The translations under genes were made by a program, and so were the position numbers. A DNA stretch of 64,000 bases, from NCBI GenBank assembly GCA_963745495.1, contig CAVUXJ010000007.1:165471-229470 (forward strand), written 5' to 3'. Numbering within the stretch: the stretch's first letter is position 1; each line of letters opens with the position of its first letter. The notes beneath the pieces were generated by a model that had not been told where the DNA came from, did no database searches, and was given only the letters and a program-made list of their open reading frames with translations. This document shows, piece by piece, positions 5,597-60,831 of the stretch. Origin of the DNA: an uncultured Acidobacteriota bacterium. GTDB lineage: Bacteria > Acidobacteriota > Vicinamibacteria > Vicinamibacterales > CAVVIG01.

Positions 5597-5736
5597 CGCT
5601 CCCTTACGACTCCGGTGCTTCGCGACGGCCCACGACGGAGCGAACACTGAAACGGACGGAGGTGACGGCATCCAATCCGTTGGCACTGGTTCTAGTGTCG
5701 TGTCTCCGAAGTTCGTCCACAGTGATAGAAGCTCGA

Positions 5737-55178: not shown

Positions 55179-55675
55179 AGGCGGAGAAGCTCTACCTCGT
55201 CGGCTTCATGGGCGCGGGCAAGACAACGGTCGCCCGGGCGCTGGCGCGGCGCCTCGACTGGCGCGTCGCGGACATCGACGAGCTGATCGAGCGCCGCGAG
55301 CGGCTCACCGTCTCCGACCTGTTCGCCCGCCAGGGTGAATCCTACTTTCGAGCGATCGAACGCGCTGTGCTGCTCGAGCAGATCGGGGTGCGGCACACCG
55401 TAGTGGCGACCGGCGGCGGGACCTTTGTCGATCCCCAGAACCGGGCGCTGATCAACGCGGACGGCGCGTCTGTCTGGCTCGACGTGCCGCTGGAGGGCCT
55501 CGTCACGCGTGTGCCGGCGGGTGGCCGGCGGCCGCTTGCCGCCGACCGCACCGAGTTCGAGCGGCTCTATCTCGTCCGGCGCGCCGCCTACGAACAGGCA
55601 CACCTCCGCATCGACGCTGGCCGCGTCAGTGTTCCCGCCATCATCGAACAACTGGTCGACTGGCTGGAAGCGTGA
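55175..55675 (+). CDS. aroK: shikimate kinase
   Basis: GTG 55175 (GTGA overlap with the aroA stop): VKAEKLYLVGFMGAGKTTVARALARRLDW..VATGGGTF. It is the tail of ORF 53945..55675. Confidence 0.85.
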   Translation: MKAEKLYLVGFMGAGKTTVARALARRLDWRVADIDELIERRERLTVSDLFARQGESYFRAIERAVLLEQIGVRHTVVATGGGTFVDPQNRALINADGASVWLDVPLEGLVTRVPAGGRRPLAADRTEFERLYLVRRAAYEQAHLRIDAGRVSVPAIIEQLVDWLEA

Positions 55676-55686
55676 CCTCCATGCTA

Positions 55687-55846
55687 GTGTCCCGAGTCAG
55701 AAATTCGGTGACATGTTTTCCGGAGCGCGGCGCCCGGATGGCAAGTCGCGACGACCGAGCATGCCGGGAGCATGCGAGGGAGGAGCAATGCCGCCAGCCG
55801 GGATGCCCCGCCCGGAAAATGTCAGCGAATTTCTGACTCGGGACAC
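55687..55846. repeat. long inverted repeat (37/35-nt arms) enclosing an 88-nt segment
   Basis: gtgtcccgagtcagaaattcggtgacatgttttccgg (55687-55723) versus ccggaaaatgtcagcgaatttctgactcgggacac (55812-55846): 34 pairs, 1 mismatch, 1 bulge. The loop carries gagggaggagcaATG (ATG 55788). Confidence 0.85.
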
Positions 55847-55848
55847 CA

Positions 55849-56005
55849 GTGTCGCGCCTCCGATGTTCGTCGTCGCACCGGGGGCGCGAAGGCGCGCGCC
55901 TCGCGAGGCGAGCGGAGAGAGAATATCAGGGGGACTTGACCGACGAGCAACGGCCCGCGGGATGCCTCGGCGGCCGACTGCACACGAACTTCGGAGACGC
56001 GACAC
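55849..56005 (+). repeat. conserved ~110-nt intergenic element, copy X, closed by a 14-bp stem
   Basis: The core 55875-55981 aligns to 59441-59550 at roughly 75-80% identity (hand alignment). The closing stem is gtgtcgcgcctccg (55849-62) / cggagacgcgacac (55992-56005), 13/14 pairs. Confidence 0.75.
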
Positions 56006-56027
56006 CAGCGTTCATGGCTTCGATCTG

Positions 56028-56771
56028 ATGCGCTACCTCATCCTGAGTGATATCCACGCAAACCTCGAGGCGCTCGAAACGGTGTTGAGCGATGCGCAGA
56101 ATCGCGGCTGCGACCGGACCCTCGTGCTCGGGGATCTGGTCGGGTACGGCGCCGACCCCAACGCCGTGATCGATCGCGTGCGCGCGCTCCCCCCCACGGT
56201 CATTGTGCGCGGCAATCACGACAAGGTGGCGTTCGGACTCGACCAGGCCGACGGGTTCAACACCGTGGCGAAGGAAGCCGCGCAGTGGATGCTCGAGGTC
56301 CTGACGCCGGAAAACCGCGCGTGGATCGCGGCGCTGCCCGCGGGGCCGTTGGCAGTCGACGACCTTATCGAAGTCTGTCATGGGGCGCCGTACGACGAGG
56401 ATGCGTACATCTTCGATGAGACGGATGCCCGCCTGGCGTTCAAGACAGCGACCAGGCCGCTGTGCCTCTTCGGGCACACCCACTACCCCGTCATCTTCGA
56501 GCTCACGAACGACAGTTGCACGAGACGCGGGCCGGCGGCCGAAGCCGAAGCTCGTCTCGAACTCATCGCGGGGGTGAAGTACCTGCTCAATCCGGGTTCG
56601 GTCGGCCAGCCGCGCGACGGTGACCCGCGGGCGGCCTATGCGATTGTCGACACCGCCGCCAGGCACGTCGAGCTGTTTCGATTGACGTATCCGCTCGAAG
56701 TCGCCCAGGCCAAAGTCATCAACGCCGGCTTGCCCGAGATTCTCGCGCGGCGTCTGGCAGCCGGACGCTGA
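56028..56771 (+). CDS. metallophosphoesterase (calcineurin-like, YfcE/MJ0936-type)
   Basis: ATG 56028 inside ORF 55509..56771: MRYLILSDIHANLEAL..LVLGDLVGYG..VRGNHD..CHGAP..FGHTHYP. Intact. Confidence 0.8.
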   Translation: MRYLILSDIHANLEALETVLSDAQNRGCDRTLVLGDLVGYGADPNAVIDRVRALPPTVIVRGNHDKVAFGLDQADGFNTVAKEAAQWMLEVLTPENRAWIAALPAGPLAVDDLIEVCHGAPYDEDAYIFDETDARLAFKTATRPLCLFGHTHYPVIFELTNDSCTRRGPAAEAEARLELIAGVKYLLNPGSVGQPRDGDPRAAYAIVDTAARHVELFRLTYPLEVAQAKVINAGLPEILARRLAAGR

Positions 56772-58716: not shown

Positions 58717-59424
58717 TCACGCGCTGCCGACCAGCGCGCGATAGCGGGCGCGGAGACCGGTGCCGGCCTTCTCGTCGGAGACGAGGCGGCCGCTGTGAAT
58801 CACCGCCACGCGGGTGACCAGGCCGTCGGCGAGGTCGAGGTCGTGGGTGGCGAGCACGACAATCGTGCCTTCGTCGGCGAGACGCCGGAGCCGGTCCGAG
58901 ATGTTCGCCACCGCCTGGTCGTCGAGCCCGGTGAAGGGCTCATCGAACAGGACGAGCCTGGGCCGATGCATCAGCGAACGCTCGAGCGCGAGCCGCTGCC
59001 GCATGCCGCGCGAATAGGCCGACACCTCGTCGTCCGCCCGATCGCTGAGGGCGGCCGCTTCGAGCGCCGCCGGCACTACAGCGCGGGAATCGAGACCGTA
59101 GAGACGCGCAAAGAAATCCAGATTCTGGCGCGCCGACAGCTCGGGATAGAGGTGCAGTTCGTGGGCCAGCAGTCCGATGCAGCGGCGAATGTCCGAACCG
59201 GCACGTAACGACGGCCGCTCTCCATACAGGATGCGACCGCTCGTCGGGGTGACAAGCGTGGCCAGCATGCCGATGAGCGTCGATTTGCCCGCGCCGTTGG
59301 GGCCCAGCAAACCCAGGATGTCGCCGCGGCGTACGGTAAGCGTCACGCGCGTGACGGCGCGACGCCGCCCGAAATGACGCGACACGTCGGCAACTTCGAC
59401 CCGGTCGAAGTCAAAGTGGTCCAT
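58717..59424 (-). CDS. ccmA: ABC transporter ATP-binding protein CcmA
   Basis: ATG 59424 inside ORF 58717..59517: ..GLLGPNGAGKSTLIGML (Walker A)..YSRGMRQRLAL (signature)..LVLFDEP (Walker B). Confidence 0.8.
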   Translation of the reverse strand: MDHFDFDRVEVADVSRHFGRRRAVTRVTLTVRRGDILGLLGPNGAGKSTLIGMLATLVTPTSGRILYGERPSLRAGSDIRRCIGLLAHELHLYPELSARQNLDFFARLYGLDSRAVVPAALEAAALSDRADDEVSAYSRGMRQRLALERSLMHRPRLVLFDEPFTGLDDQAVANISDRLRRLADEGTIVVLATHDLDLADGLVTRVAVIHSGRLVSDEKAGTGLRARYRALVGSA

Positions 59425-59569
59425 TTCATGAGTCCGGTGAGGCACCGAGGGCGTCGAGGCGCCCGCCTCGCAAGGCGCGAGGAGGGAGAATACCGGGAGT
59501 ATTTGACCGGCAAGCAACGCAGCGAGGCGGAATGCATCGGCGGCCGAATGCCACCGGCCTCATGAAACG
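59422..59569 (+). repeat. conserved ~110-nt intergenic element, copy Y, closed by an 18-bp stem that includes the ccmA start codon
   Basis: The core 59441-59550 aligns to 55875-55981. The closing stem is catttcatgagtccggtg (59422-39) / caccggcctcatgaaacg (59552-69), 16/18 pairs. The arm sequences are unrelated to those of copy X. Confidence 0.75.
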
Positions 59570-59580
59570 GGCCACCAAAC

Positions 59581-60831
59581 TCACGCGGTGACGCCGGCGC
59601 CGCCAGCGGGCTCGAGAGTCGTCTCGTCGGCGTCGAGCGCACCGTAGACGTGTTCGAGGGCGCTCACGAGCTCCTCCCGCCGCACGGCATACCGCGATGG
59701 GTCACCCCGACCGCGCCGCCGGTCGAGTTCGAGCCGCACCAGATCCTGAAATAACTTCTCGCGGCGCGCGATCAGCGCTTTGCGCGCAGCGCCCCGCTGC
59801 TCGGGGTTGTGCCGGCTGGCCGCCCAGACGCCGACGGCCACGATGACCAGCGCGATCGAGAGCGCGACGGTGCGTGGCACACGGCTGTGATGCGGCAGGT
59901 CCGTGATGCTAAGGACTACTGGTTCCCCCGCCGCGACACTCCCGGTTCCAGCCGCGGCGATGTACAGCTGACCGTTGGCCGGCATCTCCTGTTGTTTGGC
60001 GATCTGCGGCGAGGAAAGCCGTGTGTTACCCACTTTCTTCACGATGACGGCCAGGTGCGCCAACGGGGCGGGAAACGGCTGCGAAATCTCGATGGAGCCG
60101 CTGGAAGACACCGGCAGCGCGAACGCCGCCTGTACCAATGTGTTGCCGGGCGCAAAGGGCCCCTGCACCTGCACGCGCAGGCCATTCACGCTCGCTTGCG
60201 GCGAGGAGCCCTCCATGATGCTGGCGCCAAGCGCACTGGTCGGGACGTCGAACCTGAATGGCGTGGGGGGGTTGACCGGCACCTGAGCCGTGTTGGAGAT
60301 GTCGAGCAGATAGTAGACGCGGGCTCGTTCCTCTCCATCGGGCTCGATCACAATGCGCGATTCGCCGCCGATGATCACGGGGCCCGTCACCGCGGGCGCC
60401 TTGGCCGCTTCCGCCGCCCGCGCTTCCTTCTCCTTGTCGGTCGCGACGAGCAGCATGCGAATGCCGCCGCCGGCAGGCGCCGGGAAGTCCTGCGACTCGA
60501 GCCGCTCCCCGTCGACAACCGCCACGGCCTTGAGCGGCGCGCCAGGCTTCAGACCGCTGAACTGCGCACGGCCGCCCTCGTCGGTCGCGACCACGGTCAC
60601 CTTGCCGTCCACGTGGAGCTCGACCGGATGGTTCACGATGTTGTTCGAGAGATCGCCGCGAACGAGGCGGACGGAAACAGTGCCCGCCGGCAGGTCGTCA
60701 ACCGGTCGGGGAATGCCCGACATCTGTCTGGCGTCCGGCATGGCGACCTGCGCCGTCACGTAGGTCCAACCGACAAGGATCCCGACGGCACACACAATAA
60801 CGCTCGTGATCGTCCGCTTCCCGCCGCTCAT
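59581..60831 (-). CDS. ccm-operon membrane protein: N-terminal TM, beta-rich periplasmic domains, C-terminal TM + coiled coil
   Basis: ATG 60831 inside ORF 59581..60954: MSGGKRTITSVIVCAVGILVGW..VSVRLVRGDLSNNIVNHPVELHVDGK..VALSIALVIVAVGVWA..REKLFQDLVRLELDRRRG. No family recognised. Intact. Confidence 0.55.
   Translation of the reverse strand: MSGGKRTITSVIVCAVGILVGWTYVTAQVAMPDARQMSGIPRPVDDLPAGTVSVRLVRGDLSNNIVNHPVELHVDGKVTVVATDEGGRAQFSGLKPGAPLKAVAVVDGERLESQDFPAPAGGGIRMLLVATDKEKEARAAEAAKAPAVTGPVIIGGESRIVIEPDGEERARVYYLLDISNTAQVPVNPPTPFRFDVPTSALGASIMEGSSPQASVNGLRVQVQGPFAPGNTLVQAAFALPVSSSGSIEISQPFPAPLAHLAVIVKKVGNTRLSSPQIAKQQEMPANGQLYIAAAGTGSVAAGEPVVLSITDLPHHSRVPRTVALSIALVIVAVGVWAASRHNPEQRGAARKALIARREKLFQDLVRLELDRRRGRGDPSRYAVRREELVSALEHVYGALDADETTLEPAGGAGVTA

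Follow-up and report, generated by a model that had tools for sequence, protein, structure and literature searches.

A conserved hairpin with tandem G.A mismatches inside three probable MITEs of an uncultured Acidobacteriota bacterium

The window, a 64-kb stretch of the genome of an uncultured, Vicinamibacterales-like Acidobacteriota bacterium, contains two intergenic regions with related non-coding sequences. In one of them, a gene with a shikimate kinase domain (ending at 55675) is followed by a metallophosphoesterase gene (starting at 56028), both on the plus strand. Two elements, which we call Z (55687-55846) and X (55849-56005), fill 319 of the 352 nt between these genes, and the ATG of the phosphoesterase lies 22 nt past the end of X. 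The other region contains a single element, Y (59416-59575), which is flanked by minus-strand genes: a 457-aa open reading frame of unknown kind (stop codon at 59581) and an ABC ATPase. Y is on the plus strand, so it is antisense to both neighbors. The initial annotation of this DNA was correct about the gene contexts of X (upstream of a plus-strand phosphoesterase gene) and Y (upstream of a minus-strand ABC ATPase gene). It listed X and Y as the two copies of a conserved element; both are real, but the count was incomplete, as Z lies 2 nt upstream of X.

X and Y had been described as about 75-80% identical across their cores. We found a mean column identity of 81%, and the conserved blocks that had been quoted are present. 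A 24-nt degenerate pattern for the core matches only X and Y in the window, with 0 matches in 100 shuffles. A search with a covariance model had been suggested as a check, and a model built from relatives has exactly three matches in the 64 kb, all on the plus strand. These are Y (a full-length match, 100.4 bits), Z (86.1 bits), and X (49.3 bits). Y and Z are apparently intact MITEs of 160 nt each, with their conserved modules at 59455-59539 and 55726-55810 (both on the plus strand). X appears to be a degenerate MITE of 157 nt; in its module remnant (55887-55969), many pairs are broken, the apical hairpin is lost, and there is a 3-nt deletion. As had been argued, the conservation is not due to protein coding: the conserved blocks are in different reading frames, and the covarying G/C flips (described below) are incompatible with a conserved peptide.

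Each copy is bounded by terminal inverted repeats. The inverted repeat originally described for X (13/14 nt, 55849-55862 with 55992-56005) is as reported, and it extends to 20/22 nt (55849-55870 with 55984-56005). Similarly, the one described for Y (16/18 nt, 59422-59439 with 59552-59569) continues outward to 59416 and 59575, which gives repeats at 59416-59439 and 59552-59575 with about 21 of 24 nt paired. The repeats of Z are 37 bp long (55687-55723 and 55810-55846) and have two mismatches or gaps. There is also a solo X-type terminal repeat (GTGTCGTGTCTCCGAAGTTCGT, with CTA before it) at 5695-5716 on the plus strand, immediately downstream of a minus-strand epimerase-like gene. Neither a module nor a partner repeat accompanies it, so this IS630-type repeat is probably left over from an old insertion.

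The target duplications in the window are imperfect. Z has TA on its left (55685-55686, within CTAG) and CA on its right (55847-55848, between Z and X), which we read as a decayed TA duplication (CTAG to CCAG). The TA at 55685-55686 abuts X directly in a strain that lacks Z (see below). In that strain, the left flank of X is CTA; the right flank is CAG (with the CA at 56006-56007, within CCAG), so the flanks of X are TA or CA on the left and CA on the right. Y is preceded by CAAA (59412-59415) and followed by the same CAAA (59576-59579), and its duplication can be read as AAA/CAA or as CAAA/CAAA. CA/TG flanks recur in other X-type copies, where they probably reflect the decay of CTAG to CCAG or CTGG. 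We often see CCAG or CTGG instead of CTAG (in the window at 55845-55848 and 56006-56009, and at loci L010, L283, L296, L298, and L303). These are the changes expected from very-short-patch-like repair or from GC-biased transitions, and they blur the target-site duplications.

The site of Y is empty in orthologues of the ABC ATPase locus. The ATPase gene of these orthologues starts at a GTG that shares bases with the stop codon before it (GTGA). The insertion point of Y is precisely where these two translationally coupled genes meet (59416-59424 and 59576-59586), and the reading frame, as compared to the orthologues, suggests that the insertion added 163 nt (160 + 3). In the window, the original GTG is separated from the ATPase gene by Y and is 160 nt away. 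The open reading frame is instead headed by an in-frame ATG within Y's terminal repeat (59424-59422, minus strand), with MDHF... replacing MSL.... Judging from this comparison, the terminal repeat of Y now supplies the predicted ATG of the ABC ATPase.

We searched species-representative genomes for the pattern GAGAATA-N8-12-TTGACCG-N2-5-AGCAACG. Among the matches listed, there are over 120 loci, in soil and sediment MAGs from several phyla. The carriers among these matches are Vicinamibacterales, other Acidobacteriota, Myxococcales/Polyangia, Gammaproteobacteria, Longimicrobiales, and PVC MAGs. Nearly all of the listed matches are from MAGs, with several per genome, and many copies are at contig ends, as is typical of repeats that disrupt assembly. 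All full copies are built alike: a conserved interior, a terminal inverted repeat of 22-37 bp that is specific to the subfamily, and short direct-repeat flanks. The terminal inverted repeats are present in about 80 copies from outside the window. The flanks are true direct repeats and not extensions of the palindrome (TTA/TTA, TAA/TAA, CTAT/CTAT, CCAG/CCAG, and, most often, CTAG/CTAG). The duplication depends on the type of element: it is TA inside CTAG for elements like X and Z and TWA for the Y-like subfamily, which we call 'B'. We did not find the family in other collections: blastn with the core had no match in the plasmids of PLSDB, the core pattern had no match in the viral contigs of IMG/VR, and a full-text literature search for core strings, and for IS1182 together with MITE, did not turn up a description.

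Metagenomes show that the element is mobile and abundant. In run X2, a metagenome contig joins 55685 to 55848 and skips 162 nt, which is the size of Z's insertion (160 + 2), so this contig represents a strain with X but without Z. In three soil metagenomes (runs X1-X3), the contig depth of the core of Z (55696-55827) is 100-300 times that of its flanks, and in a rhizosphere metatranscriptome (run X14), it is about 60 times that of its flanks. This implies that the module is among the more abundant repeats in those communities. The insertions are intergenic, and the four possible arrangements relative to the neighboring genes are represented without bias (6/6/8/6). Nor is there a bias relative to local GC skew, which is a rough proxy for the direction of replication (42 vs. 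44). The lack of orientation bias does not support a dependence on either co-transcription or the replicating strand.

Several other loci may be useful or instructive. Two deletion derivatives (L293 at about 3976 and L313 at about 444, both on the minus strand) retain the terminal inverted repeats and the outermost helix but have lost the entire center, so they could act as natural controls for the center's contribution. At L031:3025-4163, an MITE of subfamily 'A' (described below) is abutted by a different IS630-family element (with ends GTCCCC...), and the two share a CTAG. It seems that CTAG sites beside existing elements are reused, both in this case and for Z next to X. At five loci (L038:4574-4767, L099:1972-2165, L308, L309, and L312), a palindromic repeat of about 40 nt, of the form CCCGGGG(T/C)CCCCAACGCG...CGCGTTGGGG..., is nested within copies of the MITE; this is apparently a REP-like mobile hairpin distinct from the MITE. 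Finally, L027 and L049 share an orthologous insertion, and these genomes are 96% identical, which is too close for a comparison of evolutionary rates.

To identify where the terminal repeats come from, we relied on insertion sequences that have the same ends. A scan with X's own repeat returned insertion sequences as well as MITEs. At L288:3832-4976, there is a 374-aa transposase of the IS630 family (NF033545, 256.7 bits vs. a cut-off of 100), and its reading frame runs into the right end of the element. This right end is the X-type repeat over 23 nt: the repeat of X matches it at 20-22 of 23 nt, and other X-type copies match at 23/23. X-type copies are mostly flanked by TA inside CTAG, and TA flanks are expected for IS630 elements. 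Another type of partner was found by looking for terminal repeats without a nearby core among the fetched loci. L065:712-2176 is an element of 1.47 kb that encodes a 464-aa transposase with DUF772 and DDE_Tnp_1 domains; its best match in NCBIfam is IS1182, with a score (173 bits) that is below the curated cut-off. Such IS1182-like elements (L065 and L201-L280) are 1.47 kb long and have transposases that are 65-100% identical. Their ends, CTAGCAGCCCGTGGTGAAAGTC (with the flank, CTAG-CAGCCCGTGGTGAAAGTC), are the same as the repeat of MITE subfamily 'A'.

The partners of the other two copies in the window are less direct. The first 17 nt of Z's repeat match the left end of the L288 kind of element at 14 positions, so we infer that Z's partner is probably an IS630 element of this kind. 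The repeat of Y resembles that of the 'B' subfamily (GTGCTGCCTTTCATAAATACGGTGA), and a scan of metagenomes for insertion sequences with B- or Y-type ends yielded only MITE variants and one uninformative contig end. The window itself contains no transposase of the IS630 or IS1182-like families. Within a given MITE, the two ends go back to a single end of the parent insertion sequence. The initial annotation had viewed the closing stems of X and Y as a single helix that was maintained by compensatory changes. Instead, these stems appear to be terminal inverted repeats that were borrowed from different insertion sequences (presumably so in the case of Y), so the stems differ because of where the ends came from and not because an RNA helix drifted.

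Between the ends lies an 85-nt module (the shared region is 85-110 nt) that is nearly invariant across phyla. The same module is found between IS630-type ends, between IS1182-like ends, and between at least one class of ends that duplicates TWA. The central ~50 nt are almost unchanged; by contrast, the helices next to them and the terminal repeats have become unrelated in sequence. RNAalifold and our hand-refined structure agree on how the module folds. In the plus polarity, there are two covarying helices, a conserved internal loop, the G.A helix, and then a 5-bp apical stem with a variable loop. The module's outer helix is (C)GAGGCG / UGCAUCG, and its 10-bp helix is, for example, CCCGCCUCGC / GCGAGGCGGG or CCCGGCUGAC / GUCAGCCGGG. 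The strands of the G.A helix (GCGAGGAGGGAG / UGACCGACGAGC) can be written as 5'-GCGA-S-GA-GG-GA-G / U-GA-CC-GA-S-GA-GC-3', or, with the apical stem, as GC[GA]S[GA]GG[GA]G-AAUAC-loop-GUAUU-U[GA]CC[GA]S[GA]GC. This helix has three tandem G.A/A.G mismatches (GA facing GA) that are separated by Watson-Crick pairs.

The initial annotation had also proposed a conserved internal hairpin, cgaggcg..cgcctcg. This hairpin would have a loop of just 2 nt and is not kept in the relatives; the bases involved pair with distant partners instead.

There is abundant covariation among relatives in support of the proposed fold. In an alignment of 45 sequences (A3), 92.4% of the cells are paired, and double changes occur in 18 of the 28 pairs. 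As controls, we slid the 3' partner by 1-3 columns, which reduced the paired fraction to 28-43%, and no shuffle reached the observed values. A larger alignment (A4, with 89 distinct sequences) gives a paired fraction of 90.8%, with double changes at 20 of the 28 pairs. Two points limit these figures: the sequences in all of the alignments are related to one another, and A4, like A5, was fitted to the structure of the covariance model. In A4, the pair between the first two G.A tandems is GC in 49 sequences, CG in 32, and AU in 3. The G.A columns themselves are conserved in 37-45 of the 45 sequences in A3, and two G.U pairs are conserved in 41 and 44 of them. In Z, the Watson-Crick pairs between the tandems are flipped (from G-C to C-G), as is part of the apical stem, and every GA is kept. 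L284 and L289 have Z-like flips, likewise without the loss of any GA, together with a different apical stem, and L020:3025 and L025:480 have further flips. At L281, the innermost tandem is replaced by U-A/C-G.

The Z-type flips erase TTGACC and GGAGG, so what is conserved is the geometry and not a motif in double-stranded sequence. Several simpler roles for the core were rejected. It is not a conserved peptide (TTG ACC GAC GAG CAA...), as the covarying flips change the codons. It is not a promoter (with TTGACC as the -35 box) or a Shine-Dalgarno sequence (GGAGG), as both are abolished in Z-type copies that retain the fold. A CsrA-type GGA loop is ruled out because the loop is not conserved, and a kink-turn because it would need a 3-nt bulge in the right polarity, which is lacking. 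The module also does not match any known RNA family: we found no matches to the 4,227 families of Rfam 15 at the gathering threshold anywhere in the window, and permissive scans (E ≤ 10) of the X and Y loci gave only chance-level matches (E ≥ 0.86).

The copies fold better than shuffled sequences do (z = -3.3 for X and -6.6 for Y, with either strand better than the shuffles; for Z, -110.6 kcal/mol and z = -12.6). The plus strand folds better than the minus strand, both for Y (-85.8 vs. -77.2 kcal/mol) and for Z (-110.6 vs. -104.2 kcal/mol), owing to the G.A and G.U positions that do not vary. Where stem positions do vary, G.T has no significant excess over A.C (45 vs. 34), so the strand asymmetry rests on the fixed positions. 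We did not find a consensus for a sigma-70-type promoter or a terminator at the X and Y loci. In assembled metatranscriptomes (unstranded contigs from Logan), the module occurs only inside longer contigs that have ordinary depth and run into the flanks. The depth of the module relative to its flanks is no higher in RNA runs than in DNA runs, and there is no sign of a discrete transcript.

Together, these results bear out part of the original proposal of a structured RNA or folded element: the element is non-coding, it folds as a single strand, and the fold covaries in relatives. The results do not support a free-standing RNA. The annotation had named an origin of both copies as selfish insertions of a REP or MITE family as something that would refute it, and this is in substance what they appear to be, given the multiple copies, the target-site duplications (clear across the family but imperfect in the window), the polymorphism of one insertion between strains, the presence of both orientations, and the stems that are ends of insertion sequences. 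They do not belong to any MITE family that we found described, though, and Rfam does not account for them either.

Could the module nevertheless work as a non-coding RNA, for instance a small RNA, an element for processing or stability, or a ribozyme? In that case, it would be transcribed in the plus polarity, the MITE ends would serve only to spread it, and the relevant biology would be at the RNA level and might be useful to the host. We consider this to be possible but unlikely. Covarying stems around a fixed internal loop, tandem G.A mismatches, and two G.U pairs are the usual signature of a structured RNA; the plus strands of Y and Z fold better; the flips preserve the geometry at the expense of linear motifs; and the module is conserved regardless of which transposase family's ends surround it. 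It is also present in metatranscriptome assemblies, but those contigs continue into the flanks and the depth is not elevated relative to DNA. Furthermore, the loci lack a promoter consensus, and because the orientation relative to genes is random, read-through would reach roughly half of the copies in the wrong sense. There is no significant bias towards wobble pairs at the variable positions, and there is no match in Rfam, which includes the self-cleaving ribozymes. Alternatively, a long imperfect hairpin with fixed strand-specific mismatches, in a multicopy intergenic element, is reminiscent of a REP/REPIN-like single-stranded DNA that is recognized by an HUH enzyme (RAYT or IS200-IS605-type) or by another structure-specific enzyme. 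The enzymes that act on IS608 and attC choose a strand by means of such imperfect hairpins, and the mismatches in our module could mark the active strand as the extrahelical bases do in the attC sites of integrons. This is a resemblance only, and we think that this explanation is very improbable, as the element's ends are exact copies of the ends of DDE insertion sequences and it has target-site duplications. (We know of no HUH elements that make target-site duplications.) An HUH enzyme would also not be expected from the lack of orientation bias relative to GC skew, to the extent that this rough proxy reflects the direction of replication.

It seems improbable, though less so than an HUH hairpin, that the module has no function of its own and by chance became the passenger of successful MITEs, with recent horizontal spread and with pairing that is maintained by template switching within a quasi-palindrome and not by selection. 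The element folds back on itself over its full length, an MITE takes its two ends from one end of its parent, there is no wobble bias, and the change of a G.A tandem to a perfect complement in L281 looks like a correction by template switching. However, template switching should erase the G.A mismatches, and these are kept in 37-45 of 45 sequences and even survive the G-C flips between the tandems. The center is nearly invariant next to helices and terminal repeats that have diverged, and the association with ends from two unrelated families of insertion sequences argues that the module itself persists. Some of the covariation, in the outer helices, could be due to template-switch correction of a DNA quasi-palindrome, but this would not explain the persistent mismatches or the invariant center. 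We believe, with good confidence, that the window contains three MITE copies, each with the conserved module, whose hairpin covaries and has tandem G.A mismatches. The mobility of the element, the identity of the X-type and A-type ends with those of insertion sequences, and the structure and conservation of the module are what the data show.

We propose that each copy is framed, over its outer 22-37 bp on either side, by terminal inverted repeats that duplicate one end of an autonomous insertion sequence. In double-stranded form, they would be the sites where a DDE transposase binds and cleaves. The transposase would be supplied in trans from elsewhere in the genome, and it would move the MITE and leave a short duplication (TA in CTAG for X and Z, or TWA for the 'B' subfamily). 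The module would be kept by selection for a role in cis that depends on its structure, regardless of which transposase moves the element. For example, it might fold the element back so that both ends meet, or it might form a hairpin, as RNA or as single-stranded DNA, that lowers the cost of insertion or raises its success. We infer that the selected function is structure-dependent and independent of the transposase. A bolder possibility, which we consider tentatively and do not favor, is that the hairpin is a single-stranded device (RNA or ssDNA) in its own right that has repeatedly taken over ends from unrelated DDE transposons, and has thereby spread across phyla. Those ends would include IS630, IS1182-like, and at least one family that duplicates TWA, and the device might enhance mobility, be a platform that binds a conserved host protein, or be a catalytic or processing RNA. 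If so, it would be a passenger that chooses its vehicles and not a deletion derivative of one insertion sequence.

The element's mode of spread is familiar. RUP from pneumococcus, Stowaway, and other MITEs of the IS630/Tc1-mariner type are non-coding, about 100-160 bp long, multicopy, intergenic, inserted at TA, and moved in trans. As with these elements, the terminal inverted repeats of our X-type copies match an element of the IS630 family. To our knowledge, though, each MITE of this type is linked to one family of insertion sequences and to one lineage, and its interior is not conserved beyond that lineage, whereas the interior that we describe is found with both IS630-family and IS1182-like ends and in several phyla. 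The Correia elements of Neisseria spread similarly: they measure about 100-155 bp, have inverted repeats of 26 bp, duplicate TA, form long hairpins when transcribed, and affect neighboring genes. But the interiors of Correia elements have an IHF site and promoter-like motifs and are restricted to the genus, while our scans of the present module did not identify promoter or terminator motifs, and it is defined by the helix with tandem G.A mismatches. In appearance, the family is like REP/REPIN and ERIC sequences, which are likewise intergenic, present in many copies, and imperfectly palindromic, and whose stems show compensatory changes. In REPINs, the ends are conserved and the center varies, the target is not duplicated, and the partner is an HUH enzyme; the present family has a conserved center, variable ends, duplications, and DDE transposases as partners. 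The module also resembles the structured RNAs in Rfam, in that covarying helices surround conserved positions that are unpaired or non-canonical, but none of the 4,227 families matches it at gathering or permissive thresholds.

MITEs are usually seen as decayed copies of one insertion sequence, with ends that are conserved because the transposase needs them and an interior that drifts. In this family, the situation is reversed: the ends are interchangeable, with at least two unrelated families of transposase, and the interior is constant across phyla, both in its sequence and in an unusual fold. Because this combination of interchangeable ends and a constant structured interior sets them apart from the elements compared above, we describe these elements as an apparently undescribed MITE family whose conserved folded interior recurs between the ends of unrelated transposon families. 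The family has practical consequences. It breaks metagenome assemblies, as seen from the many copies at contig ends; it rewires the starts of genes, as with the start codon donated by Y; and screens for covariation can mistake it for a riboswitch-like RNA. If the interior is functional, then it would be either a general enhancer of non-autonomous transposition that is independent of the transposase or a widespread structured RNA. In the latter case, it would have been overlooked because nearly all of its hosts are soil bacteria that have not been cultured.
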